Shown in pieces: positions 1 through 30,905 of a stretch of 64,000 nucleotides of DNA (its first letter is position 1; each line of letters starts with the position of its first letter). A program made the position numbers and the translations under genes. This DNA is from Actinomycetes bacterium (lineage in GTDB: Bacteria > Actinomycetota > Actinomycetes > Nanopelagicales > Nanopelagicaceae), in NCBI GenBank assembly GCA_025354785.1, contig JANXME010000326.1, forward strand, positions 1,506-65,505, read 5' to 3'. Under the pieces are notes generated by a model. That model saw only the letters and a list, made by a program, of their open reading frames with translations. It did no database searches and was not told where the DNA came from.

Positions 1-1745
1 TCCTTTCTCACTTGCAGACCGGATACTAGTTCACGGCGAAACTGAGACAGTGTTTCGCCGGTAGGCTTGCCGAGGTTTTGCATCATTGCTTGTAAAACTC
101 TTGATTGCTCTATGCCAGTTCGTCTGCGCCACAGGTCTACAGTACGGTTAAGCGCATCCATGAACTCATACTTTGGTTCGGTAGTTAAGATTGTGTCTAT
201 GACTTGTGGTAGTTCCTTGTATTGTGGGAACAATATTGCCATTTCATCACGCACCGACTGGACGGTTACGCTATCAGGCCCAGATAATGTTCTAGCTTTT
301 ATGTGGCATGTGTCTAGTGCGCCGAATACGTATTGATATGCGCCCGTTGTAAACGCTTTAGGATCAGTTATGGCCTGCCTTACAATTGACCAAGCTCTTG
401 GATTGAATAAAATGTGACGAAGTATACTTACTTCCGAATCTTTGTTCAACAGGCCAGACTTAGTCAATTTAAGTTCAGCCACAAACGATTTGATGCTGGC
501 TGGCTCAATCGTTAATTCTTGCGATAGATATGTTGCTGTTAAATCTAGATGTAATTCTGGAATGGAGGACAAGAATCCGCGTAGTTCTTGAATAACTCCA
601 AAACGATCTTTCGTTGATATATTGCCTTGTATGTCTCGTTTGGTATCAACGAAAAATTGGACCGGCAGTACAGCATCATGAAATATCTTATCTAGTGCTG
701 TCTTGCCAGACACTTTGACCATATCATCTGGCTGCGTATCGTTTGGCATTTTTGCCACCAATACATTCATGCTGTCCATTATTGCCACATCGTCTAAGAG
801 ACGAATCGAAGCGGCGCGACCTGCCGCGTCGCCATCAAAGCACACAACAACTTCTTTTACTTGATGCTCTTGCAACATCCGGATCTGCTCTTCATGCAAA
901 GATGAGCCCATCATGGCAACACCTGCACTGGCGATCGCGGCCTTTTGGCCTTCTACTACACGGATGCTATATTTTGTATCTCTAAGGGTTTTCCGGGCAA
1001 GATGGAATCCATAAAGAAGTTTATGGGTCATCAGGGGATGTTTACTGCTAGTGCCAACATACTTGCCACCGAAATCGGGCGGTGGTGAAAGCGGTTTGTT
1101 GTAAAACCGCATGGTTTTACCGGAGGGGTCCTTGACTGGGTAAACCAGGGAGTTGTTCCACATTAATCTATTTGTGAATTCGAGTTTATCAACATCATCC
1201 TGTGTTAGGCCAGGAGTGGTTGTGAATAGATGTCTTACGAGCGTGTCTACGCCTTGCGTCCATCCAACCTCATAGTCCGCAATCTGAGTGTTTGTGAATC
1301 CACTATCTATCTTATACCAGTCAATCAAGGCTTTGTTGTTAAACAATTGAGCGCAACAAAATTTGGATGCAGCGTCCATGATAGAAATGTATCTATTTTT
1401 AAGTATCTCTTCTTCAGTTGGTGGTCGCTCATATGCGGATATGTCTACGCCATATTTGACAGCTAGTAAATATATGGCTTCTGGCCACGTGAGGCCGTAA
1501 TATAACTCAGTCCACTTAACTACATCTCCACCTTTGGTGCAGCCCCAACATTTAAATATCTGCATCTGGCTATGTACGCCAAATGATGGGGAATTCTCTG
1601 AATGTAGCGGACAGCACCAGAAAGAATCATTACCTGAGATTTTGGATGGGGCTCCAATGTCATCAGATATCACTTTTACTATATCTAATTCTTTACGTAC
1701 TTTCGAATGTGCGCCCTTAATATCTGTCAACGTCTTAGTTGTCAA
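1..1745 (-). CDS. DNA primase, DnaG-like (C-terminal part lies beyond the left window edge)
   Basis: Hand translation; absent from ORF track (no ATG, runs off edge). CHC2 zinc finger CCPLHSENSPSFGVH..FKCWGCTKGGDVV and TOPRIM VVEGQKAAIA..CFDGDAAGRAA. Probable TTG start at 1745 overlapping upstream stop as TTGA (alternative TTG 1730). Confidence 0.85.
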   Translation of the reverse strand, partial: MTTKTLTDIKGAHSKVRKELDIVKVISDDIGAPSKISGNDSFWCCPLHSENSPSFGVHSQMQIFKCWGCTKGGDVVKWTELYYGLTWPEAIYLLAVKYGVDISAYERPPTEEEILKNRYISIMDAASKFCCAQLFNNKALIDWYKIDSGFTNTQIADYEVGWTQGVDTLVRHLFTTTPGLTQDDVDKLEFTNRLMWNNSLVYPVKDPSGKTMRFYNKPLSPPPDFGGKYVGTSSKHPLMTHKLLYGFHLARKTLRDTKYSIRVVEGQKAAIASAGVAMMGSSLHEEQIRMLQEHQVKEVVVCFDGDAAGRAASIRLLDDVAIMDSMNVLVAKMPNDTQPDDMVKVSGKTALDKIFHDAVLPVQFFVDTKRDIQGNISTKDRFGVIQELRGFLSSIPELHLDLTATYLSQELTIEPASIKSFVAELKLTKSGLLNKDSEVSILRHILFNPRAWSIVRQAITDPKAFTTGAYQYVFGALDTCHIKARTLSGPDSVTVQSVRDEMAILFPQYKELPQVIDTILTTEPKYEFMDALNRTVDLWRRRTGIEQSRVLQAMMQNLGKPTGETLSQFRRELVSGLQVRK

Positions 1746-3926: not shown

Positions 3927-5375
3927 TTATCCTAATACTATATTCCCATCGTGTTTATACTGACTACGCCGTATTGAGTGGTGCTTAGCTAAAAACGATA
4001 CATCGGTGTTGAGATCTATTAGCAGACCATTCACCTTACCCGGAGCGGCTCTTTCAACGCGTCCTTTCAGTTGTCGTATATCAGTTACATCACCTGCGAC
4101 AATTAGTGCATCCAGCGAGGGTATGTCCAGACCAGTTGATCCAAGGTCTGAGACTATGCAGAGTACCTTTTTGGTGCGCATATTATCATATGCAGTACGA
4201 CGAGCCAGCCTCTTGGTTTTACCATTAATTAAGACTGAACCTGGAATAAGGTCATGTATCGCTTGAGAAAATGCCAGCTTATGTGGTGCATATACAAAGA
4301 CTGTTCTGCCACCATTCATTAGGTCGAGCGCCAATTTAGCGATCTCTGCATGATATAGTGGATTATCCAGGATCTCTACATCGAGGCAGTGTTTAAAATT
4401 TTTGGCATTGTCAGGCGACAACACTCCGCGAAAGCCCCTCTTAAAATGTTCTTTATATTCGGTTCTGAGTGGCTGCCGATTAATGATGCTTACTATTAGA
4501 GGGGCCTTAACACCCAAGGAGATGAAATCGACCTTCCGACAGTCGTAGATGACCTCCCCGAAATGCTGTTCCAACTCAAGGTTGAATTTTTTCTCGGCTT
4601 TCTCGGCCCAACCATATGGGGTAGCAGACATTCCGAAAAACTTTTCGGTGGCCGTAAAATACGGCATAATTTTCCCGACAGTATTGGAATCGTACAGGTG
4701 GGCTTCGTCAGATATCACGACCCCCACCATATTTACGTGTCGTAACAATAATTTACGTTTATCGGCCGCCTCAATCGATTTAGCGTCGGTAATCGACGCG
4801 AAGGACTGCAGAGTAGTAACGGTGATGGGCTGTAGATCAAATTCACCATCGCCAATTACACCAATTGGCTGATCAAACAACCTAGCGAGGTTTTGCTGCA
4901 TCTGATCGAGTAATACGAGATCGGTTACCAAGACCATGGCATATTTTTTAAGTGTATTGATCATCAATGCGCACATCAGACTTTTGCCGCTACCTGTCGG
5001 GCTTACTATTATGCCCATATCTTTTGCCTCAACAACCGGCAAAAGATTTTGTTGGAACTCATAAGACTTAATCAGATGGGCATTAAACTTATGATCGATA
5101 TGTGGCGTGTGCTTCAGGTTGATCGTAACTATTGGATTATATCCATTCTCGGTCAATATTTGCACCACGCGGGGCAGCAAACCACGCCTAAAAATCGTAG
5201 TGGACGGATTGAAAAGCCGATTATATCCATCCCAGCGTTTATTAATGAAGCTCCATACATGCTCATACCCCTCGGCACGGCACTTGAGTTCTTCGTATAT
5301 TAAAGTTGTAACTGAAGGCGTTAAGGCGCTCTCGATCTTGCAATCGATATTATCTACAGATATTTTAATATCCAT
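3927..5375 (-). CDS. SF2 DEAD/DEAH-box helicase
   Basis: Walker A VSPTGSGKS, DEAH box VISDEAHLY, motif III MSATP, C-terminal helicase motifs GLDIPSLDALI and GRVER. Confidence 0.85.
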   Translation of the reverse strand: MDIKISVDNIDCKIESALTPSVTTLIYEELKCRAEGYEHVWSFINKRWDGYNRLFNPSTTIFRRGLLPRVVQILTENGYNPIVTINLKHTPHIDHKFNAHLIKSYEFQQNLLPVVEAKDMGIIVSPTGSGKSLMCALMINTLKKYAMVLVTDLVLLDQMQQNLARLFDQPIGVIGDGEFDLQPITVTTLQSFASITDAKSIEAADKRKLLLRHVNMVGVVISDEAHLYDSNTVGKIMPYFTATEKFFGMSATPYGWAEKAEKKFNLELEQHFGEVIYDCRKVDFISLGVKAPLIVSIINRQPLRTEYKEHFKRGFRGVLSPDNAKNFKHCLDVEILDNPLYHAEIAKLALDLMNGGRTVFVYAPHKLAFSQAIHDLIPGSVLINGKTKRLARRTAYDNMRTKKVLCIVSDLGSTGLDIPSLDALIVAGDVTDIRQLKGRVERAAPGKVNGLLIDLNTDVSFLAKHHSIRRSQYKHDGNIVLG

Positions 5376-7603: not shown

Positions 7604-8740
7604 TTAACTCGGTCCGTTTAATACTTCGTCACGGATCTTGTTTACCACTTCAACTGGCGCGGCACGCAATTGTTTGATAAAATTATCTTCACCATTCTCT
7701 TTAATGTCACCCCAGCCATACCATGATGAAGTTTGCTTAATTACTCCACACATGAGTGCTGTTTGGAAGACATCTTTATAGATATCTACCCCAGCATAAT
7801 ATTGAACACCCTTCTCGTCAGTTACAGTCTCAAACAAGACGTCATATTCGATACTGTTCTGAGGAATGGTGGCTGTCTTGTTCTTATGCAAAGTCGCCTT
7901 TACTCTGACACCGATCTTGCGCATCTCATATCCATTGCCGGCACTATTTGGCACGGATCGTACAATATCGTCACGATCGTAGTTCTGTGTCTGGAGTGAG
8001 TAAGACGCAAAAAATTTGAGCGCTGCACCACCGGTATGATCTTCAGTCGGCCCATGCATAACCATTGGCTTATACCGCATTTGGTTGACAAACCAAACGA
8101 TTGGTGTTCTGAAGGCATTAAGGAATGCATTAACCTGCTGCAAGCCTTCAGCCATCATCTGCGCCTGGGTGGCCTTTTGTCCTTGTCCAATGACTGCGGT
8201 GAGTCTTGAACTCGGAATTAAAGCAGGCACTGAGTCAACAATGATCATCTCAATGCCATTCTGAATGAGAATTCCGAGCAGATTGAAATAATCTTCGCCT
8301 GTTAACAGACGCTCTGGTGTGCTGCGGAATAACATTAGCTTATTTGGGTCAACACCCACAGCCGCTGCCATTGATGGACTGTAGGTATTCTCTGCGTCCA
8401 AAAATGCAACCCGCCCTTCGCCAGTTAGATTGGTTGACGAAGGCTCAAATTTGAGCCTTTGGATGTTAGCTGCGACGGTTAATGCAGTGAGTGTCTTACC
8501 ACTGCCCTCCCATCCGAATATGTTAAACACCCGTCCACCAAGCAGACACCCCGTGCCTAGATATTTATCTAGGGATAGAATGCCTGTAGGGTACTTGCGA
8601 ATATGGTTGGTGTCGAACTCCTCGGTATCGCTAGCCAGCGCACTGACCGTGCCACCCATCAATTTATTGATAGAAGCACTAAGGCTAGAAAGATCCTTGC
8701 CCTTTGGAAGGACATACTTCTCTTCTTTTTCTTTTGCCAT
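7604..8740 (-). CDS. RecA-family recombinase
   Basis: Walker A GWEGSGKTLTAL, Walker B IIVDSVPAL; RecA-like core length; neighbours are resolvase and SSB-like gene. Confidence 0.8.
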   Translation of the reverse strand: MAKEKEEKYVLPKGKDLSSLSASINKLMGGTVSALASDTEEFDTNHIRKYPTGILSLDKYLGTGCLLGGRVFNIFGWEGSGKTLTALTVAANIQRLKFEPSSTNLTGEGRVAFLDAENTYSPSMAAAVGVDPNKLMLFRSTPERLLTGEDYFNLLGILIQNGIEMIIVDSVPALIPSSRLTAVIGQGQKATQAQMMAEGLQQVNAFLNAFRTPIVWFVNQMRYKPMVMHGPTEDHTGGAALKFFASYSLQTQNYDRDDIVRSVPNSAGNGYEMRKIGVRVKATLHKNKTATIPQNSIEYDVLFETVTDEKGVQYYAGVDIYKDVFQTALMCGVIKQTSSWYGWGDIKENGEDNFIKQLRAAPVEVVNKIRDEVLNGPS

Positions 8741-9815: not shown

Positions 9816-10001
9816 CTACTCTGGGTAATCTATCTCCATATCTATATCTATACTCTCTGTCATAGACAGGTGTGTGGCCGCTTTTTCTTTTTGCTCATGA
9901 GCGCATGTTCTGCAGGGGGAATATCCGCATTCCGCTCCAATGCACTCGTCTTTATAGCCCTCGCATATACGACCGCAAACTGGGCAAGTTCGTGCTGACA
10001 T
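9816..10001 (-). CDS. small zinc-ribbon protein
   Basis: 61 aa with CPVCGRIC and C..C..C clusters; 1-nt gap to next gene. Confidence 0.5.
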   Translation of the reverse strand: MSARTCPVCGRICEGYKDECIGAECGYSPCRTCAHEQKEKAATHLSMTESIDIDMEIDYPE

Positions 10002-10002
10002 A

Positions 10003-10212
10003 TTACTTCAAAAGCTCGTCAATCTTTACCGCTAAATCGGTCTTGGTTAGAAGAAGACCGGTGGCTATAGCCGCGCAAATCCCTAATGCATTTGCAACTT
10101 CGTGGCGTTCATTGTTTCGTACGCCGCTATTTATGTATGCATGTTGATTTGCGCCAGTCTTGGTACGGCCAAAGGCATTTAGATATACTTGGTAATCAGT
10201 TTCGTCTTTCAT
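10003..10212 (-). CDS. hypothetical protein
   Basis: 69-aa ORF with 4-nt overlap to upstream ORF. Confidence 0.45.
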   Translation of the reverse strand: MKDETDYQVYLNAFGRTKTGANQHAYINSGVRNNERHEVANALGICAAIATGLLLTKTDLAVKIDELLK

Positions 10213-10409
10213 TTTGAGTCTTCCTTTAAATACCCAGCATCTTTTAGTGCCAGGTATATTTTGGTGTAAATACTATAATCATATTCGCCATATATGGCAG
10301 CCATAGAACTAGCCATAGCAGCATCATGATCAGACATGGTTCTGGCTATCAACTTTTGGACTTCATTCCAAGAATTTGGATTTTCCATCATTCCTTCAGG
10401 TTCTTCCAT
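10209..10409 (-). CDS. hypothetical protein
   Basis: 66-aa acidic ORF, co-directional. Confidence 0.45.
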   Translation of the reverse strand: MEEPEGMMENPNSWNEVQKLIARTMSDHDAAMASSMAAIYGEYDYSIYTKIYLALKDAGYLKEDSK

Positions 10410-10531
10410 TTACGTGAATTTTCTTCGGTCCAAAATGGCTGTAAGTTAGTGTAGTGGCACGCTTTTATTAATTCTTGTTTATTGTTTAGATCAAATGAGT
10501 CTAACGGTCTAATATGATCTATAACACATTT

Positions 10532-11662
10532 TCATAACATCCAGATGTAGTCGTCGTGTTCTGCAGAGGTGCCAATCATGACCACTGGTAGGTTGGTTAC
10601 ATCTTCCATCTTTTCAATATACGTTTGAACACTCCGGTGTAGCTTTCGGTATTCGGTGTGACCACCACGTACCTTGTAGGAGCTCCAGTGTATATATTGA
10701 GGAAAGTTGAGAATCAACTTGGTTGCCCCAGTTGCTTGTGCCGAGTCTGCTAGGAGACTCCAAGACTGTGTGGCTACCCGGCGAATCTTTTTCGTGACCG
10801 TCGTCCGCTCTCTCTCTGCCAGCCCGGCTGCCTCGTCGGGCGGCATGCCCGCATCTTTCGCAATTTGCTCCCATGTAGTTTCTTGTTGGTCGCTGCAGAA
10901 ATCACCAGAGTATCCAACCTGTGTCCCATCCTTGGTGAAATTGTTTCCAACACGTATGGCGAAACTTCGCACATTTAGATATACGTCGCCAATTAAACTG
11001 GGTGTAATACAAAAGTCTGAATAGGCTTGCTGCGGAGTGCAGTCACGAAAAGTACTATGGGGATAGTGTGTACCATAGTTAACTGAAAGTGCGAATCCCT
11101 GTGAGACTTCATGCATAAAGGTGCGGCCATCGGCAAATTCTTTGCGAACTGCCTTCATAAAATTCATTGGTGGTAGCGATGTATATTCTGGATAATTTCG
11201 TATTAAATCCACCGTTTCACCGCGCATAGCCTTTTCAGTGAAAGCTGCACCAGATCCACTCATGGTTGAAGAGATACGCTCTGTTGACTGCACTCCGCCA
11301 GGTGACTCCATATCAATATGCCGCTGGCTGGACACAATGGCACGTTCATGGAAGAATACCTCATTGTGTTTATACCCAGTTTCTTTAAGTTCCTTATTTA
11401 ATTGTTCAATGGTAAATCCAGAATTCGGTCCAACCCACAAACGGGGCTTACTTTTACCCATCGTATTCAGATATGATGGTGTAGGAATTGCCTTAGATAC
11501 AAACTTCTTAACCGAATGTACCACACTATGTCCAGCATTCGGAAAGTTACATGTCGAAACATTTTCTGTCTTATAAATGTCGACTAGTCGAGTCGACGCA
11601 GCCCCTTTCGCACTTGAACCCCAAGCAGAATCTACGATACAATTAAACTTACCCTTTTGCAT
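10532..11662 (-). CDS. adenylosuccinate synthetase family protein (divergent PurA homologue; candidate PurZ)
   Basis: Collinear with E. coli PurA motifs: WGSSAKG (GDEGKGK), FPNAGHSV (GGHNAGHT), ISSTMSGSGAAFTEK (IGTTGRGIGPAYEDK), IRVGNN (TRVGAG), TKLI (TKLD), IGTSAEH (ISTGPDR). 376 aa versus about 430. Confidence 0.75.
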   Translation of the reverse strand: MQKGKFNCIVDSAWGSSAKGAASTRLVDIYKTENVSTCNFPNAGHSVVHSVKKFVSKAIPTPSYLNTMGKSKPRLWVGPNSGFTIEQLNKELKETGYKHNEVFFHERAIVSSQRHIDMESPGGVQSTERISSTMSGSGAAFTEKAMRGETVDLIRNYPEYTSLPPMNFMKAVRKEFADGRTFMHEVSQGFALSVNYGTHYPHSTFRDCTPQQAYSDFCITPSLIGDVYLNVRSFAIRVGNNFTKDGTQVGYSGDFCSDQQETTWEQIAKDAGMPPDEAAGLAERERTTVTKKIRRVATQSWSLLADSAQATGATKLILNFPQYIHWSSYKVRGGHTEYRKLHRSVQTYIEKMEDVTNLPVVMIGTSAEHDDYIWML

Positions 11663-11880
11663 TATTGCACCTTAAGTACAACGTCGACGTTAGCCAAATA
11701 TGTCGTGAATTTAATCTTTGGAAGCGCGCTGCCAGCATCGATCTCTATTTCCAGATTAGAGATCAGTCCTACTGGCTTACCATTGTAGTAGAGCATAGAG
11801 CGCTGGCCATGCTTGGTGTCTAGCTCAAGGCGCCAGTCTGGCTTTTTGTCAAAAATATTCTCAATCTTCTTCTTGCTCAT
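11662..11880 (-). CDS. hypothetical protein
   Basis: 72-aa ORF; 1-nt overlap with PurA-like start and 4-nt overlap upstream. Confidence 0.5.
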   Translation of the reverse strand: MSKKKIENIFDKKPDWRLELDTKHGQRSMLYYNGKPVGLISNLEIEIDAGSALPKIKFTTYLANVDVVLKVQ

Positions 11881-12155
11881 TTTTCTATATCCTTGAGTAT
11901 TTTATGCCATGCTTTCTTCTTAGGAAATTTATTTACTAGACGTCCGATAACCTTCTGGCCGTGCATGAATAGTATAGTATATGCAGGTAATATTCTATGC
12001 TTGGCAATGAAAGATAATTCTTCTACATCCATCGTGTAAAAATCTAGGAATGTAGCGTCAGAAACGAACGCCGCTAGCTCCAGAAATTCTTTGTTGCGCG
12101 GGAAGTCGGGGTCAGTTATGAATATAACTTTCACGTCTTTTGACAAGTTGGCCAC
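11877..12155 (-). CDS. thioredoxin-fold-like protein without CxxC
   Basis: VKVIFITD..ILPAYTILFMHGQKVIGRLVN matches thioredoxin beta-alpha-beta topology; no redox cysteines; adjacent to RNR. Confidence 0.35.
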   Translation of the reverse strand: MANLSKDVKVIFITDPDFPRNKEFLELAAFVSDATFLDFYTMDVEELSFIAKHRILPAYTILFMHGQKVIGRLVNKFPKKKAWHKILKDIEK

Positions 12156-12190
12156 CTATTATCATATATGCGCGACTTAGCTGCGGATAA

Positions 12191-14134
12191 CTATATGTGG
12201 CAGACTGCGAATCCGCAATGTGTACAAGTATCGCAACCGCCAGCCGAATCCATCTCTTTCGTGCATTCAGGACATGCATTCTTGATATCCCTCATGGCTA
12301 TATCTATGTGGTTGTTCCCATATCTAATAGATTCTATGGTGCTACTAGCACTGTCAATTACCGCTTTAACAGTATCGATTATACTAGCTTGACCGCTTGA
12401 TAGTGTCTGGTTTGCTCTGCAACCGTCTCGATAGATTGTAATACCCTTACAGCCACTTTTCCAGGCTAACATAAAAGCTTTCTTTACATCTTCAACCGTT
12501 GCCAAATTCGGCAGATTGATGGTCTTAGATATCGCATTGTCTACATGCTTTTGCCACACCGCTTGCATGGCAATGTGCTGTTCTACAGTTACATCATTGG
12601 CCTGTACGAATATGGCCTGATATGCCAGATCAATTTCTGAGCAGCCTTGAATAGTATTGTGTTTGAAGTAATACTCGTGTATAGCATCAACCTTGATGTT
12701 AGGCAGCGTGTCTAAGTATTGCTGGAACAACGGGTGTGTCTCATACATCACCATACCAGCCTGTTCGCGTTTCAGAATTAAAAATGAGATCGGCTCAATG
12801 CCGGTGTCAGCCCCAACAATAATTGCTGTTGATCCGGTTGGAGCCACGTTGGTTCGACAAGCGTTTCGCATGGCCTCCCAACCTTCAGCTTGCACTGCTG
12901 AACCTTCGAAAGAACCAAAGGAACCTCTTTCTACACCCAGATTGCAGGATGCACGATCCGCGATAGACCTGAAAACAAACGCAATCTTGTCCGCAATGTC
13001 TAGAGATTCCTGTGAACCATAAGCGACGCCGAGCTTAATGAATAACCCAGCCTCACCCATTACTCCAAGTCCAATCTTACGATTGGTGCGCTTATGCATC
13101 TGCTCGATAGCGGGTAACGCATAGTGGTTGACTTCTATGACATTATCTAAGAATCTAACAGCAACGTGAATGTCTTTCTTGAATTGATCCCAGTTAAAAT
13201 GAGATTCCCAAGTGCCATTTGTTGGTGGCTTAGCGATATAATATTTACTTAGATCTAAGTGACCTAGTGTACATGCCTCATTTGGCAATAGCCACTGCTC
13301 TCCACAGGGATTAGTAGCCTCTAGTCGACCTATGTGGGGTGTTGGATTTGTTCTGTTCGCCGTATCGATAAATAACATGCCTGGATCGCCGGTCAGCCAT
13401 GCGTTCTGGCATATATCGTCAAACAGTTTGTCTGCGCGGACCATGCTGGTTACATGTCCGTCAACTCTTGATATAAAATCCCAGTTGTCTTGATTAAGCA
13501 CTGCATTCATGAATACGTCTGGAACTGTATGGGAAATGTTGAAAGACTTACATGAACCATCTACGTTTTTAAATGTGATAAATTCTGGGGTGTTTGGATG
13601 GTCAATAGGCAAAGCGGCCATATTGGCGCCATTGCGGGCACCACCTTGGATGATGAACTCTGTCATCATATAATTTTTCAGTTTGATTACTGGAATCGGA
13701 CCAACCGCTCTTTTGCCAGTGCTCTTAATTATGGCTTCAGATTCACGAATTAAGCCATAATTAAATCCAGTGCCTCCGCCACTCTTTTGCACCATGGCTT
13801 GAGCTTTGATGCAGTCCATGATTTCTTCCATGGAATCGCCAATTGGCAAAACGTAGCATGCGGCGAGTTGGCCACGTTCGCGACCAGCATTGATTAATGT
13901 GGGTGTATTCGGCATAAACCGAAGACTACACATCATCTCCATAAACTGTTGCTCAAAAATCTCGATAAGGTCTGCATGGCCAAATATAGCCTCAGCAGAG
14001 GCGACTTTGGTGGCCACGCGCCAAAACATATCTTTCGGAACTTCCAAAGAACCATCGGCTTTGGTCCAATGATATCGTTTGTCAAGGATTTTTAAAGCAT
14101 TGGCAGTAATGGCTGGGTCAATATCTACAGACAT
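12191..14134 (-). CDS. nrdJ: class II (adenosylcobalamin-dependent) ribonucleotide reductase
   Basis: TNPCGEQWLLPNEACTLGHL active-site loop, SGGGTGFNYG, C-terminal CPEC..CDTCTHC ribbon. ATG at 14134 preferred over track TTG at 14155. Confidence 0.85.
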   Translation of the reverse strand: MSVDIDPAITANALKILDKRYHWTKADGSLEVPKDMFWRVATKVASAEAIFGHADLIEIFEQQFMEMMCSLRFMPNTPTLINAGRERGQLAACYVLPIGDSMEEIMDCIKAQAMVQKSGGGTGFNYGLIRESEAIIKSTGKRAVGPIPVIKLKNYMMTEFIIQGGARNGANMAALPIDHPNTPEFITFKNVDGSCKSFNISHTVPDVFMNAVLNQDNWDFISRVDGHVTSMVRADKLFDDICQNAWLTGDPGMLFIDTANRTNPTPHIGRLEATNPCGEQWLLPNEACTLGHLDLSKYYIAKPPTNGTWESHFNWDQFKKDIHVAVRFLDNVIEVNHYALPAIEQMHKRTNRKIGLGVMGEAGLFIKLGVAYGSQESLDIADKIAFVFRSIADRASCNLGVERGSFGSFEGSAVQAEGWEAMRNACRTNVAPTGSTAIIVGADTGIEPISFLILKREQAGMVMYETHPLFQQYLDTLPNIKVDAIHEYYFKHNTIQGCSEIDLAYQAIFVQANDVTVEQHIAMQAVWQKHVDNAISKTINLPNLATVEDVKKAFMLAWKSGCKGITIYRDGCRANQTLSSGQASIIDTVKAVIDSASSTIESIRYGNNHIDIAMRDIKNACPECTKEMDSAGGCDTCTHCGFAVCHI

Positions 14135-14202
14135 AAAAGACACATTCCTACCCAATCGAACAGAGTTCGAGGGGCTTAAATTAGATAATTTGGATAGTTG
14201 AG

Positions 14203-21063: not shown

Positions 21064-22227
21064 CTATTGACACTCGTCAATCATGTTGTCGAGTTCGTTT
21101 TCCATTGCAGCAGCACTCATGTATATATCAAGAATCTTGCCGCCGGTTTGAGTGGCAGCTGCTTGATATGATAGCGCGACTCCGGCCTCTGTAAAGATAA
21201 ATACTTTCATGTTTGCATCAGATGCCTCAGTGGCTGCTTCGTCAATAGTGTGTGTAATCGGAGCATAGGATTGAGCGTACTCGTCTGAAAACATAATGAA
21301 GGTTCTCTTGGCGCCCGCCCGCCAATTCAAATGCAGATGGTTAACTGGATCAGCGGTCATATATATCGCATCAATAGTTGGCTCACTCCCAGTATCACCA
21401 GAGCGTTCATAGGCCATTCTTTGATTAAATACAGATACGGTCGTAAAATTTTGGACGAGTTTTACCTTATAGTCGTCAATTGTATCTGGCCCCGGACACT
21501 CCTCTAAGGCCCACGTGAGATCTGCGCGCCCCGCATATTTGGTGGTCCATTGCTGCGTAACTCCTTTAATCGTATTAATTACATTGCCCATTGACCCAGA
21601 ATTGTCTATGCAGATAACTATATCACGTGGATACAATGATGTTCCATTGTCTACGATTCCGTCACAATTATCATCAATATGATTGCACATTTCTGGCCTT
21701 GGAAGCACTTGTCCAATACATTTAGATGAGCCGTCCACGCATGATTTTATTCCAGCTTTGCAGTTGCCCTTGCCAAGTGTGTCAAGTGGAGCATCATAGC
21801 AAACTGCATCCGATATCGTTTTGTACACAATATTATCTATAATACCATCACAATCATTATCCAAGCCGTCACATACCTCTGGGCCACCTTCGTTGCCAAG
21901 ACATGACGATTGGACCCCACCTACACAAGTTTTAATGCCTGAACCACACGGGTTAACACATTGGGTGACTGGCTCATCTATAAATCCGTCACAATTATTG
22001 TCTAGTCCATTGCAGACCACTGGACCGGGTTTGCCTGATCCAAGACACACCGGATTTTGATCGTCATCGGCACAATCCCATTTGCCAAAAGCACAAACAC
22101 CCTTACCTGCCAGATTGTTTTCGCCATCGAAACATGGGGAGTCGCATTTTGGATTTGGCGCTTTAACCAAATGATACTTAGTGCACCCGGCAAACAGTGC
22201 TAGAACCACCAAAATACAAACTCTCAT
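21064..22227 (-). CDS. lipoprotein with Cys-rich DNDCDG repeats and C-terminal vWA domain
   Basis: Signal peptide with lipobox LFAG-C; repeats CNGLDNNCDGFID, CDGLDNDCDGIID, CNHIDDNCDGIVD; MIDAS CIDNSGSM. Confidence 0.7.
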   Translation of the reverse strand: MRVCILVVLALFAGCTKYHLVKAPNPKCDSPCFDGENNLAGKGVCAFGKWDCADDDQNPVCLGSGKPGPVVCNGLDNNCDGFIDEPVTQCVNPCGSGIKTCVGGVQSSCLGNEGGPEVCDGLDNDCDGIIDNIVYKTISDAVCYDAPLDTLGKGNCKAGIKSCVDGSSKCIGQVLPRPEMCNHIDDNCDGIVDNGTSLYPRDIVICIDNSGSMGNVINTIKGVTQQWTTKYAGRADLTWALEECPGPDTIDDYKVKLVQNFTTVSVFNQRMAYERSGDTGSEPTIDAIYMTADPVNHLHLNWRAGAKRTFIMFSDEYAQSYAPITHTIDEAATEASDANMKVFIFTEAGVALSYQAAATQTGGKILDIYMSAAAMENELDNMIDECQ

Positions 22228-26109: not shown

Positions 26110-26385
26110 TTAAACAGCTACAGTCTTGAAGGTAGTCCAACCCTCAAGGTTATCTTGAGGATCAAAAACCTGTACAAGTGTAGGTTTGGCGGCAATCCGT
26201 CGCAAACACACCTTGGCTTGGGTCAGCGAAATATCTGTAAATATTACCTTGTATGGATGTGGGTCATCTTTGGACCCTGCCAACCAATCGGACCAAGTTC
26301 CAATACTCTCCAACTGGTCTAGTGCAGCCTCTGCATCCTTCTGTGTATTGTAAAATGCGCGCACTACCAATGGTTGACTATGCAT
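26110..26385 (-). CDS. hypothetical protein
   Basis: 91-aa ORF, 1-nt overlap with deaminase stop. Confidence 0.5.
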   Translation of the reverse strand: MHSQPLVVRAFYNTQKDAEAALDQLESIGTWSDWLAGSKDDPHPYKVIFTDISLTQAKVCLRRIAAKPTLVQVFDPQDNLEGWTTFKTVAV

Positions 26386-26810
26386 TAATGCTTCCTCGGA
26401 TTTTTACTGATGAAGTGGTATTCCAGATACATTGGAGCATCGTTGTTAGAGGCCAGTTTGAGACTTTCAAGACTACCGTCGTTGTTGGAAAATATAATCT
26501 TCTTTATGCCCGCTTGGCTAAGCCTAGACATACAGAGATGACAAGGCTTAGCCATTCCCAGACTGCCATCTTTACGCACACGAATAACCAAGAGGGTGGT
26601 GCCTTCAACATCACTTCGCCAAGCTCGGTTGAGAACAGAATGCTCGGCATGTATGAATGAATGATTCCAACCAACTTTGATTATACTACCGCCACGGACG
26701 ATGGCAGCCGCAATTTTATGTTGTTTATGATCTGATTTACCAACATGCTTCAATAAAGTGCGTACATGTTTTGCAGGGTTTCCGTCAATTGTGTATGACA
26801 GGCCAATCAT
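26385..26810 (-). CDS. dCMP/cytidine deaminase family zinc enzyme
   Basis: HAEHSVLN and PCHLCMSRL zinc-binding motifs at the expected spacing. Confidence 0.85.
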   Translation of the reverse strand: MIGLSYTIDGNPAKHVRTLLKHVGKSDHKQHKIAAAIVRGGSIIKVGWNHSFIHAEHSVLNRAWRSDVEGTTLLVIRVRKDGSLGMAKPCHLCMSRLSQAGIKKIIFSNNDGSLESLKLASNNDAPMYLEYHFISKNPRKH

Positions 26811-27937: not shown

Positions 27938-28240
27938 TCAAGTTTTAGCATTACTGTCACGCTTGCCACATGCCTTACAGGTAGTAAATAAAGATCCGCT
28001 TGGAGTTGTTATGGCACGTATGTTGGTACTATCGCAAAACTTACACTTGGGCAAATCATTAGGTAAGGTGTATTCTGACGAAACATCTTCATACTTTACT
28101 ATCTCTGGCTTATTTGCCTCTTTTCTAAGCCTAGCTACCTGTTTGCGCAAGAGTTTGATCTCTGATTTTAGCTCTTGGACCTCTTGATTCTTTCGTTCTT
28201 CTCGTGTTGGTTTATGTTGTGTGCGCTTAGGCTGCCTCAT
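27938..28240 (-). CDS. coiled-coil plus zinc-ribbon protein
   Basis: Basic/heptad N-terminus, CKFC..CKAC ribbon; 4-nt overlap upstream. Confidence 0.5.
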   Translation of the reverse strand: MRQPKRTQHKPTREERKNQEVQELKSEIKLLRKQVARLRKEANKPEIVKYEDVSSEYTLPNDLPKCKFCDSTNIRAITTPSGSLFTTCKACGKRDSNAKT

Positions 28241-29421
28241 CGAGTTCTACGTTCCGGCATCTCGCAGAAGATAACCTGGGCGCCCTGAGGTGGTTTGGTG
28301 TGGATTTCGCGGGCGAAAGCACCAACGATTAGCTGTCTGGCAGGGATGGGTGAGGGCCACGCTGCGAAAAATTCGCAGTCAGTGAAATGAATGCACGCAT
28401 CGAACTTACCTTTCTTGCTTGCTTGCCTGCACGCCACGTACGCTGGCTCGGGGTCAGTCCCACCAGAGAACGAAACAGCTTCATTCAGCTTCCACTGCTC
28501 ATTCTCAGACAACCAACCAGACCACACCAATTCGCTGGTGTGAACCGCCAAAAACACCTTCACGCCACTGAATGAATGCATCAGATTGACCGTTTCGGCG
28601 ACAATCTGGTTAATCCATTCACGGTCCATCGACCCAGATGCATCGATAATTACGCTAAGGCTCGGCTGATGTCCCTTCCATCCAGGCAACTGCACACCTT
28701 CTTCCGGGGACCGGCGATTACGCTTTGAAAAAGTCTGATAGTCGCGGGTCGGCTTTGATGCTGTAACTTCGAAACCGTGACGGATAATCTTCTTCCAGTC
28801 GATGCGGGCTGCACGTGGAGATAGCAATGCTGCGACCGCTGAGCTACCTTTCCCAGCCGCTTGGGCGTGGGCTCGCGCCTCAATAGCAACTTGTTTCCAA
28901 TCTGGAGCGCCCTCGGTGTTGTCGTCAATAACGCCACAGCCTGCTGCGGCATCCCCCTGCCCACTATCCTTTGATTGCTGTGGCATATTCTTCGGATTTT
29001 TCTTTAAAAATTCGAAGATCGCCTCTGCGAATATGTCTCCATGATACTCATGGGGTGGATATAGCGCATCCTTTGGCAATTTAATATCATCGAGCTTCAG
29101 AGCATGATTGATCGCCATGTCGGTTGCCACATTCCACATCCAAGCATCACGCCCACCACGCCGACCATGATGAAGCAAAATTAGATGCAACATCTCGTGC
29201 GCCAGAACTCCCTGGAGCTCCTCCTTTGTGAGCTTGTTCACAAATTCGGGGTTCAACAAGATTCGACCAGCGGCAGTGATACCCATCGTACCAACACCCT
29301 GCTCTTTATTTGAGATTTGATACAATTCGCGAATACGTTGGTGGATTAGCAAGAAATGTGGTTGAGTAAAACCAAGCACGTAGACAGCATTCCTACATTT
29401 CTCGATTGCGTCGTGGCTCAT
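28237..29421 (-). CDS. putative metallopeptidase (HExxH) fused to vWA-like domain; MoxR partner type
   Basis: VLAHEMLHLILLHH; C-terminal MIDAS-like VIIDASGSM; lies just downstream of the AAA+ ATPase. Confidence 0.65.
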   Translation of the reverse strand: MSHDAIEKCRNAVYVLGFTQPHFLLIHQRIRELYQISNKEQGVGTMGITAAGRILLNPEFVNKLTKEELQGVLAHEMLHLILLHHGRRGGRDAWMWNVATDMAINHALKLDDIKLPKDALYPPHEYHGDIFAEAIFEFLKKNPKNMPQQSKDSGQGDAAAGCGVIDDNTEGAPDWKQVAIEARAHAQAAGKGSSAVAALLSPRAARIDWKKIIRHGFEVTASKPTRDYQTFSKRNRRSPEEGVQLPGWKGHQPSLSVIIDASGSMDREWINQIVAETVNLMHSFSGVKVFLAVHTSELVWSGWLSENEQWKLNEAVSFSGGTDPEPAYVACRQASKKGKFDACIHFTDCEFFAAWPSPIPARQLIVGAFAREIHTKPPQGAQVIFCEMPERRTR

Positions 29422-29477
29422 TATGGATCTATCTCACTAATGGTGTTTGGATGCGTGTTACTAGACATATGATACAT

Positions 29478-29672
29478 TTAATTTTTGTTGTGATTCGCCC
29501 AATAAATCCATGCTCTAGGGAATAAATTAAAAATCATTCTACTGAATAGACTAAACCAGTGGTTGCGCCACGCCCCTATCCGGCAGCGTGGACACAACCG
29601 GTCCAATTCATTGTGCTGGGAACAAACAGAATAGAAGTCCCGGCGCCACCATAAATGACCCTTATAAAGCAT
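29478..29672 (-). CDS. hypothetical small protein
   Basis: 64 aa, Trp/Arg-rich with CPRC; start overlaps ATPase stop by 1 nt. Confidence 0.35.
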   Translation of the reverse strand: MLYKGHLWWRRDFYSVCSQHNELDRLCPRCRIGAWRNHWFSLFSRMIFNLFPRAWIYWANHNKN

Positions 29673-30841
29673 TACTGACCGCGAATAGCCTGTCCGATAG
29701 AACGAAGAAGACGGCCTTGCGCGAGAGTGCCTTCCTTGTGGAAAGGAGAGGAAGTGAACTTCTGCATTCCGAAACGACCCATCACATTCATTGCCGCTAC
29801 GCGGGTTTCATTCTGCAAACGGTCAGAATAGATCCATGCGGGGCAGGGGTCGGTCTGTGAAACTTGGGCAAGAATGCCAAGCACCGCGATTGCGGAATTC
29901 ACATCGGTGGGCAATTTAGCGGAGGCCGGGTTCTTCAAAATCTCCTTGATGCTCGGAAGGCTGTGGCGAACTTTACGAATGGTCATATACGATGCCGCCG
30001 CATCTTCACCCACATTGCCAGCCAGCACAGCGGCAAAAACAGACCCGCTATCCTGTTCACCAGCATCAAGCGCTTGGGCAATGACACGAATGCCACGCTC
30101 CCATGACCGTGGAGCGCCCCAAGCCTTACCCGACGACGATGCGCCCGGCGGTGGGTCAATGCACAACAAATCCGGAGCCATCTCAATAGTGGCGGCGAAG
30201 TCCGTGGCGATAGTCTGTGCAGTGGTCATCTCCTTAACCAGCCGCTCCTTCTCGCCATTAACTTCAACAAACTTGGCATCGAGGTTGTAAAAATACTCTT
30301 GGACCTCTTTGTTCGCCGGGCGCATATTGATTTGCGTCATACGACCGAGAAGAGGAAGTGAAAGTTCCCATCCGCCAGACGCCTGCTCTGGTGGGTTGGC
30401 TGCCGCCACGATGCGCGTTCCGGGGTGCAGCTTGACATCACCAGCCCAACGCTCATACACCAGCCGCAACGCTGCGCCCTGAACAGCCGGGGAGGCGCAG
30501 GTAAGCTCGTCTAGGAACAGCAGTACGGGCTCTTGCGTCGCGCGCTTAATACAGCCGAGCGGCAGCCGGTTGATGCTGCCGAGCTTATTTTCCGCATTGC
30601 CGCCAGTTGACACCGGGAAACCACCGATATCAGTAGGATCGCAAAGTGAAAGGATAAGCGGCTCAAACGGCAACTTGAGCTCCGCCGCAACAATGGCGAC
30701 GATAGCCGACTTGCCAATTCCAGGCGGACCAATCAAATTGATCGGCTGGTTGGCCAGGATGGAATGCCGCAAAGCCCGAATGCATTCTGCCAGATTCAAC
30801 ACATCAATTCCACTCGTCTTATCTGAAGTAATTTTACTCAT
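29672..30841 (-). CDS. MoxR/CbbQ/CobS-like AAA+ ATPase
   Basis: Walker A GPPGIGKSAIV, Walker B LLFLDELT; GAGGAAAG SD before ATG 30841 (track start 30883 less likely). Confidence 0.75.
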   Translation of the reverse strand: MSKITSDKTSGIDVLNLAECIRALRHSILANQPINLIGPPGIGKSAIVAIVAAELKLPFEPLILSLCDPTDIGGFPVSTGGNAENKLGSINRLPLGCIKRATQEPVLLFLDELTCASPAVQGAALRLVYERWAGDVKLHPGTRIVAAANPPEQASGGWELSLPLLGRMTQINMRPANKEVQEYFYNLDAKFVEVNGEKERLVKEMTTAQTIATDFAATIEMAPDLLCIDPPPGASSSGKAWGAPRSWERGIRVIAQALDAGEQDSGSVFAAVLAGNVGEDAAASYMTIRKVRHSLPSIKEILKNPASAKLPTDVNSAIAVLGILAQVSQTDPCPAWIYSDRLQNETRVAAMNVMGRFGMQKFTSSPFHKEGTLAQGRLLRSIGQAIRGQ

Positions 30842-30905
30842 CTTTCCTCTTCTGCGTTGTGTGTGAACTGCAATAAACTGCAATAATTATGCCAGTGCAA
30901 CATCG

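Follow-up and report, generated by a model that had tools for sequence, protein, structure and literature searches.

A candidate PurZ-type synthase with putative PurZ0-style helper genes in an uncultured phage carrying a DnaE-type polymerase

PurZ is an ATP-dependent N6-succino-2-amino-2'-deoxyadenylate synthase that converts dGMP, aspartate, and ATP or dATP to dSMP and stands at the start of the replacement of adenine by 2-aminoadenine (Z). To our knowledge, the only demonstrated natural carriers of Z-DNA are small siphoviruses and podoviruses with DpoZ or PrimPol and DatZ/MazZ or DutZ/DmtZ helpers, and we found no literature that connects PurZ with DnaE-type replication or with large or jumbo phages. 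Here, we analyze a 64,000-nucleotide stretch of DNA (the window; contig JANXME010000326.1 of GenBank assembly GCA_025354785.1), which makes up most of a 65.6-kb contig (C128, 44.6% GC) in a metagenome bin of 356 contigs and 1.95 Mb. One of its open reading frames (ORFs) had been described in an initial annotation as a divergent PurA homolog and a candidate PurZ. Our results support this proposal with caveats: the protein lies off cellular PurA in phylogenetic trees, carries residues that distinguish PurZ from PurA, and has clade members in canonical Z-clusters. The explanation we consider best, and toward which we lean with some reserve, is that the ORF encodes a PurZ-type enzyme that would act together with a PurZ0-style helper set and a DnaE-type polymerase incorporating dZTP.

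The candidate shares with the PurZ enzymes of phages PhiVC8 (PDB 6FM1 and 6FKO) and S-2L (7ODX) a short PurA fold, a Ser in place of Asp13, a Thr-Thr-Val-Thr-Lys aspartate loop, an ATP-type N-F-x-[NQ]-Y motif, an insertion after the RVG strand, and a neighboring lineage in the tree. However, it is only 25 to 34% identical to them and contains about 12 additional residues (MPPDEAAGLAER) that also occur in archaeal PurA. The phage itself differs from the characterized PurZ phages in having neither an adjoining datZ or mazZ nor a DpoZ, and in combining a genome of about 160 kb with a DnaE-type polymerase. The PurZ0 actinophages (Gordonia phages Ghobes and Archimedes, PDB 7VF6; Arthrobacter phage Wayne) resemble it in helper logic, with an NDT that has the Tyr/Asn/Glu triad and Asp12, directly followed by a trimeric Dut, both in the module of the PurA-like gene. 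In contrast to PurZ0, the candidate has Gln rather than Asp at the guanine position, making it ATP type, and branches with PurZ; its phage has separate rather than fused NDT and Dut genes and no PolA. Archaeal PurA (Pyrococcus horikoshii, 5K7X and 2D7U; NF003295) is an equal best match in sequence and fold and has the short architecture and an MPxxEA segment in common with the candidate, whereas it keeps Asp13 and a T-M-L-D guanine motif, uses IMP and GTP, and falls outside the Ser-type clade. Bacillus phage vB_BpsS-140 is alike in module order, an NDT-like gene, and a DnaE-type polymerase but is a 55-kb siphovirus whose enzyme has the P-loop GSEGKG.

To compare active sites, we aligned the candidate with about 250 homologs and with the PurA proteins of Escherichia coli, P. 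horikoshii, and the bin itself, six PurZ sequences, and two PurZ0 sequences. The key residues of the candidate are the P-loop G15SSAKG20, H45, T287-T-V-T-K291-K-I-R294, W264, and N319-F-P-Q322-Y323. The initial annotation had noted that the Asp of the P-loop GDEGKGK is replaced, and the alignment confirms it: S16 occupies the position of the E. coli catalytic Asp13 (VpS14 in the PhiVC8-type enzyme, S23 in S-2L), which is about 99% conserved in PurA (PMC12884076). Every one of the approximately 250 homologs examined has Ser there. The guanine-specifying Asp is also lost, as proposed, but not through the suggested change of TKLD to TKLI; the TKLI at residues 314 to 317 is not the homolog of TKLD and had been misaligned by five residues. 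Alignments with E. coli, P. horikoshii, PurZ, and PurZ0 instead pair the L-T-K-L-D of PurA with L318-N-F-P-Q322 of the candidate, L-N-F-C-N of the PhiVC8 type, and L-N-F-A-Q of S-2L. Q322 occupies the position of EcD333, where S-2L PurZ likewise has a Gln (Q308), and the adenine of ATP is stacked in PurZ by a Phe and a Tyr (VpF295 and VpY298) whose counterparts in the candidate are F320 and Y323 (PMC8342488; bioRxiv 10.1101/2025.10.22.683976). The pocket L318-N-F320-P-Q322-Y323 accordingly reads as the ATP type of VpPurZ (L-N-F295-C-N-Y298) and S-2L (N-F-A-Q308-Y). It lacks the Asp at EcD333 that both PurZ0-type sequences examined (Sapo and Parvaparticeps) possess, and with S16 and NFPQ the candidate has neither the Asp13 nor the (N/T)KxD guanine motif of PurA.

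The remaining substrate contacts point in the same direction. T287, the first Thr of the aspartate loop, corresponds to VpT262, where PurA has Gly; K291, W264 (VpW252), and T298 are also PurZ-like, and PurA has Trp at the position of T298. V238, after which comes the PurZ-type insertion, is the counterpart of V241 of S-2L PurZ, a residue that excludes the 2'-OH (PMC8342488; bioRxiv 10.1101/2025.10.22.683976). T287, W264, and T298 match residues that separate dZ-contig enzymes from PurA, and the same two sources describe the matched positions as PurZ specific or dZ associated. The PurZ-specific contacts are conserved over about 120 family members, and among 22 members, 70 alignment columns are invariant, including all catalytic residues. 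Taken with the phylogenetic bracketing and clade context described below, these residues make ATP-type PurZ chemistry likely for the candidate.

We constructed a quick tree of 102 sequences and a careful IQ-TREE phylogeny of 62 sequences (supports are ultrafast bootstrap/SH-aLRT). Both trees show the same branching order, with bacterial PurA at the root, followed by P. horikoshii PurA and then by a Ser-type clade (100/99). Within the latter, PurZ0 lies outside a 100/100 clade that comprises the characterized PurZ enzymes (100/98), the vB_BpsS-140 group, and a 100/99 clade uniting MaF61-like proteins with the clade of the candidate. The candidate itself belongs to a 13-member clade of uncultured phages (100/100 in the 62-sequence tree), which is a lineage neighboring characterized PurZ and not a part of it. 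The phylogenetic check that the initial annotation had suggested therefore came out in favor of its proposal: the protein groups apart from cellular PurA and sits in the Ser-type clade beside PurZ. As placed by these trees, it is bracketed by PurZ and PurZ0, both of which have been shown experimentally to use dGMP. The family is large, with 1,362 clusters of homologs at an E value of ≤1e-10, 775 representatives at 50% identity reaching the same threshold, and 32 homolog-bearing IMG/VR contigs of 17 to 436 kb, several of them complete with terminal repeats. All homologs at least 43% identical to the candidate are from uncultured sources, and we found no cultured-phage protein with more than 35% identity over most of its length. 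Seven homologs (P0121, P0122, P0124 to P0126, P0130, and P0131) are 750 to 1,200 amino acids long and match the candidate in two separated stretches, which suggests that they carry inteins or other insertions inside the gene.

At the level of the whole protein, the ORF matches Pfam PF00709 (Adenylsucc_synt) with 68 bits and PHROG 1211, and it can be aligned end to end with the short structures 5k7x (P. horikoshii PurA), 6fm1 (PhiVC8 PurZ), and 7odx (S-2L PurZ), in agreement with its earlier description as a short ORF collinear with adenylosuccinate synthetase. A search against solved structures found 5k7x and 6fm1 equally close (E values of 1.9e-21 and 2.3e-21), followed by 7odx (1.4e-19) and the PurZ0 structure 7vf6 (4e-12). 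An AlphaFold2 model built from 22 family members is confident, with a predicted local distance difference test (pLDDT) score of 88 and a predicted TM (pTM) score of 0.90. Foldseek with this model again returned 5k7x (4.6e-24) and 6fko (5.2e-24) together, with TM scores of 0.74 to 0.82 to PurZ. Since PurA and PurZ tie in both sequence and structure searches, the fold does not decide between them, and we dropped it as a discriminator. The candidate is a real ORF that encodes an intact protein with the short PurA/PurZ fold.

Two complete relatives whose enzymes fall in the 13-member clade place this lineage in a Z-related gene context. In the 118-kb genome G006 (L033, IMGVR_UViG_3300017646_000001), the purZ-like gene is followed by a MazZ-like and then a DatZ-like gene at positions 9929 to 13091. 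The MazZ-like protein matches S-2L MazZ at 4e-10, and the DatZ-like protein matches a YfbR-like profile with 38 bits and S-2L DatZ at 3e-6; a PolA gene (1,087 amino acids) lies 9 kb upstream of the purZ-like gene, and DnaB is encoded upstream as well. By its gene content, G006 is an uncultured phage of medium size that carries a canonical Z-cluster in this region. In the 41-kb genome G019, a DUF5664 dATP/dGTP diphosphohydrolase domain (82 to 84 bits) is encoded directly downstream of the PurZ-like gene, and the genome also has an NDT-like gene. In the relatives of 360 to 436 kb, about 10 kb separate the YfbR-like and PolA genes from each other, and both are far from the PurZ-like gene. An NrdR-like zinc-ribbon ORF follows the DatZ-like gene of G006, and short PolA-like ORFs occur in relatives G002, G004, and G005, with no homolog in the phage of the window.

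Contig C128 is phage throughout, with co-oriented genes, eight tRNAs, a DnaG primase, a superfamily 2 (SF2) helicase, RecA, a ribonucleotide reductase (RNR), a DNA ligase, and RNA ligases. Tetranucleotide similarity ties it to contigs C132, C49, C80, C281, and C254 of the bin, and protein synteny with the closest complete relative, an IMG/VR genome of 160,708 bp with terminal repeats (G003, IMGVR_UViG_3300009709_000003), ties it to C49, C147, C281, C132, and C80. The syntenic contigs total about 160 kb, which suggests an uncultured source phage with a genome of about that size; a megablast search with 20 kb of the window returned no match among 50,697 phage records. The initial annotation had reported no datZ, mazZ, or dpoZ in the window, and hidden Markov model searches of the window and its contig were likewise negative for DatZ, MazZ, and PolA. 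It had further suggested looking for these genes in the rest of the genome, and this also came back negative. Neither phmmer searches of all six-frame ORFs of the bin with DatZ, MazZ, and DpoZ from S-2L, ZP6, a PhiVC8-like phage, and PMBT28 nor the profiles phrog_7076, phrog_801, PF12917, PF01966, PF03819, PF04447, PF18909, and PF00293 gave a match on the phage-like contigs. A linked DatZ with MazZ, DUF550, or DUF5664, as is found in G006 and G019, is thus absent from the query phage. Instead of PolA, the phage has a DnaE-type Pol III alpha, whose G003 ortholog scores 226 bits and whose own gene appears to be split over C80 and C49. The only PolA of the bin (868 amino acids, C106) is taken to be the host Pol I, and G003 has no PolA. 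A short contig, C175, carries an ORF for an 860-amino-acid family-B DNA polymerase for which neither G003 nor any other relative has a counterpart; we treated it as unrelated to this phage, and it probably belongs to another element.

The candidate helper genes lie on an adjoining contig. C128 and C80 share 14 bp where the left end of the former meets the start of the latter, and G003 has the same gene order; this places an Adk-like kinase, an NDT-like gene, and a dUTPase gene about 1.6 to 3.2 kb past the left edge of the window and 12 to 13 kb downstream of the PurZ-like gene (Table 1). The kinase matches AAA_17 with 44 bits and ADK with 26.1 bits, and its G003 ortholog exceeds the ADK cut-off with 32.4 bits. 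As in the PurZ0 helper modules, where Dut is fused to or directly follows the NDT, the Dut gene of C80 comes directly after the NDT-like gene; the same pair is present in G003 (136853 to 137380 and 136407 to 136871). The residues that matter in DmtZ are the Tyr6/Asn77/Glu103 triad, Asp12, and Pro57 (PMC12884076). Y5, N63, E89, D11, and P39 of the C80 protein align with DmtZ of Gordonia phage Sapo, and these residues are likewise kept in the NDT-like homologs of G003, G001, and vB_BpsS-140. The PF05014 score of the C80 protein is close to that of Sapo DmtZ (21.9 bits), and the G003 ortholog reaches 44.8 bits. In a tblastn search of the 50,697 phage records, the protein matched only the DmtZ domains of eight Arthrobacter PurZ0 phages, which form the N-terminal part of a fused DmtZ-DutZ (verified in phage PitaDog), and one vB_BpsS-140 protein. 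With a profile of the NDT-like proteins, the gene was detected in G003, G001, and G019. We also considered a motif-3 hairpin that is two residues shorter in both the C80 Dut and DutZ as a DutZ marker. We rejected this marker because ordinary Duts, such as those of humans and E. coli, presumably have the same spacing.

These genes allow a pathway to be proposed. The PurZ product would be converted to dZMP by an adenylosuccinate lyase, presumed to be that of the host because none was found in the bin or G003, and the dZMP would be phosphorylated by the Adk-like kinase of the phage, whose DnaE-type polymerase would incorporate dZTP. The trimeric Dut would turn dATP and dGTP into dNMPs, and the DmtZ-like NDT would destroy dAMP and salvage the Z base, so that a PurZ0-style helper set would stand in for the classical DatZ and MazZ. 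The substrates of these four phage enzymes are inferred. By analogy with the PurZ0 phages and the relatives described above, Z in the virion DNA is plausible. We suggest tentatively, and with rather more doubt than belief, that an ATP-type PurZ, a DmtZ-like NDT with Dut, an Adk-like kinase, and an RNR make up a third Z-genome architecture in phages that have genomes of about 160 kb and replicate with a DnaE-type (family-C) polymerase. By extension, the same may hold for the related PurZ-like genes of phages with 250 to 436 kb.

The closest cultured homolog of the candidate is the PurA-like protein of vB_BpsS-140 (MH884512.1; 35% identity, phmmer E value of 5e-44). The module of this phage comprises purA-like, recA, helicase, dnaG, adk, dut, and sigma genes (see also PMC6375668), together with an NDT-like gene and DnaE-type polymerases. 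Its DNA is reported not to be cut by DraI, HindIII, PstI, or BamHI and to be poorly cut by KpnI (PMC6483233, S3 Table), and the first 50 kb contain 18, 6, 4, 3, and 3 sites for these enzymes, respectively, and 22 for EcoRI. We found no report in the literature on the chemistry of this DNA. The pattern fits some modification of A- or T-containing sites, although it is nonspecific and leaves the result with EcoRI unexplained.

Several findings weigh against a PurZ-based pathway with Z-DNA in the phage of the window. On NF038379, the curated PurZ model with a cut-off of 300 bits, the candidate scores 152.9, and six PurZ/PurZ0-type sequences of known Z-phages or close relatives score 313 to 408; by this comparison, of the kind that the initial annotation had suggested, the protein would not count as a family member. 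It is about as far from the archaeal PurA model NF003295 (138.5 bits versus a cut-off of 368) and remains well below the PurA model TIGR00184 (78 versus 396). However, the G006 ortholog within the purZ-mazZ-datZ cluster reaches only 150.2 bits on NF038379, which indicates that this cut-off excludes the whole clade. W14 is PurA-like, in a position where PurZ has Phe or Tyr (VpF12), and position 18 in the P-loop is Ala instead of the Gly of most members, an Ala that is shared by about 45% of the family and by the Ghobesvirus PurZ0 of phage Sapo. DatZ, YfbR-like, MazG, DUF550, DUF5664, and PolA proteins are all absent from the phage-like contigs of the bin and from G003. Among the proposed helpers, the NDT-like protein gives weak matches (20.6 bits to PF05014 and tblastn E values of 3e-3 to 7e-2), and the Dut, with 61 to 72 bits against DutZ, 45 against the bin's own Dut (C72), and ordinary phage Duts as its best database matches, is by sequence indistinguishable from an ordinary dUTPase. 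A PurB search with a single MaF61 phage query found nothing in the bin or G003, which with one query is uninformative. Finally, the vB_BpsS-140 enzyme is in another subclade than the candidate, on the PurZ side of the 100/100 clade, and the DNA of that phage is reported to be cut completely by EcoRI (PMC6483233, S3 Table), whose site contains A.

Part of this evidence can be read in other ways. The candidate could be a Ser-type ligase of the PurA family with another substrate, either GMP, with the RNR reducing the product, or IMP or XMP, in a purine supply route that raises (d)ATP with the Adk-like kinase and RNR. An RNR homolog is the sole conserved neighbor, the kinase belongs to the module, the protein falls below every curated family threshold and has W14, and MaF61-type phages pair a PurA-like gene with PurB. 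We nevertheless consider this unlikely given the Ser for Asp13 in all of the approximately 250 homologs, the match of T287, W264, and T298 to dZ-contig enzymes, the insertion that in PurZ places a Val against the 2'-OH, and the clade members in canonical Z-clusters. A slightly less probable alternative keeps true PurZ chemistry without wholesale Z, in the form of partial substitution, a reshaping of the dNTP pool that drains dGMP and dATP, or counterdefense. It would account for the lack of DatZ, MazZ, and DUF5664 in both the query phage and G003 and for the distance of the PurZ-like gene from the YfbR-like and PolA genes in the 360- to 436-kb relatives. Moreover, purZ-mazZ-datZ alone gives only 7 to 28% Z in E. 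coli according to Table 3 of PMC12944874, and S-2L PurZ consumes dATP (PMC8342488). It has to contend, however, with the adjoining DmtZ-like and Dut genes, a set that lies behind full substitution in PurZ0 phages (PMC12884076), and with the strong and wide conservation of the PurZ residues. Although the contig comes from a bin fragmented into 356 pieces, a host-derived or decaying PurA copy without specific function, or a misbinned cellular gene, is very improbable: the contig carries tRNAs, phage replication genes, and co-oriented genes throughout, it shows synteny with a complete viral genome of 160.7 kb, the bin encodes a canonical PurA of its own (427 amino acids) in a separate gene on C143, and the 70 invariant columns and the confident AlphaFold2 model argue for an intact enzyme.

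If the enzymes of this family are true PurZs, Z-DNA or Z-nucleotide metabolism would be far more widespread than previously assumed and would reach large and jumbo phages. A family-C polymerase would be able to replicate Z-DNA; DatZ/MazZ, DUF5664, and DmtZ/Dut would be interchangeable helper modules around one synthase lineage; and the third architecture, if real, would take 2-aminoadenine DNA beyond small PolA and PrimPol phages. Because the curated PurZ model misses this clade, annotation pipelines name its genes "adenylosuccinate synthase." The cultured relative vB_BpsS-140 (DSM 29700; host, Bacillus pseudalcaliphilus) allows direct testing.

Table 1. Coordinates of the PurZ-like gene, its neighbors in the window, and the candidate helper genes on contig C80
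Feature	Location	Strand	Description and evidence
PurZ-like succino-amino-deoxyadenylate synthase candidate	10532..11662	minus	376 aa, ATG start; ORF list, Pfam/PDB/NCBIfam, residues, trees, AlphaFold2
Two small ORFs between RNR and PurZ-like gene	11662-11880 (72 aa), 11877-12155 (92 aa)	minus	ORF list
RNR large subunit	12191..14155	minus	654 aa, Cys-rich C-terminal tail; Ribonuc_red_lgC 370 bits, Ribonuc_red_lgN 66 bits
RecA-like recombinase	7604..8740	minus	Pfam RecA 137 bits; co-oriented replication/nucleotide module
SF2 (UvsW-like) helicase	3927..5375	minus	Same module; Pfam ResIII, DEAD, Helicase_C; synteny
DnaG-type primase	3..1745	minus	Runs off the window; Zn_ribbon_DnaG, Toprim
Cytidine/dCMP-deaminase-like ORF	26385..26810	minus	141 aa; HAE...PCxxC motif; dCMP_cyt_deam_1 43.9 bits
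Candidate helper module	C80 1-4870, adjoining window position about -1505		Adk-like kinase, DmtZ-like NDT, Dut, sigma-like ORF, N-terminal DnaE part; in tandem, downstream of primase
NDT-like gene	C80 726-1235		Overlapped by Dut; PF05014 20.6 bits
Trimeric Dut	C80 1196-1669		Overlaps NDT-like gene

Within the window, the stop codon of the upstream 72-amino-acid ORF overlaps the start codon of the PurZ-like gene. This ORF and its 92-amino-acid neighbor have no Pfam match and no homologs in the 32 related loci, and we rejected them as a hidden MazZ on these grounds. The only repeatedly linked gene is that of the RNR, with a homolog no more than 10 kb from the PurZ-like gene in 14 of the 32 loci. 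The initial annotation had pointed to nrdJ and dCMP deaminase as nucleotide-metabolism neighbors; an RNR large-subunit gene does adjoin the PurZ-like gene, and a deaminase-like ORF is present but about 15 kb away and not adjacent. The order purA-like, recA, helicase, primase is common to vB_BpsS-140 and G003. Between its primase and helicase genes, G003 additionally has a dCTP-deaminase-like ORF (141893 to 142417; L069), which has no counterpart there in the window. Elsewhere in the window, and not adjacent to the PurZ-like gene, are a MopE-like metal-binding/vWA protein (21064 to 22227) and a DUF2201 metallopeptidase-vWA gene paired with a MoxR-like AAA ATPase (28237 to 30883).

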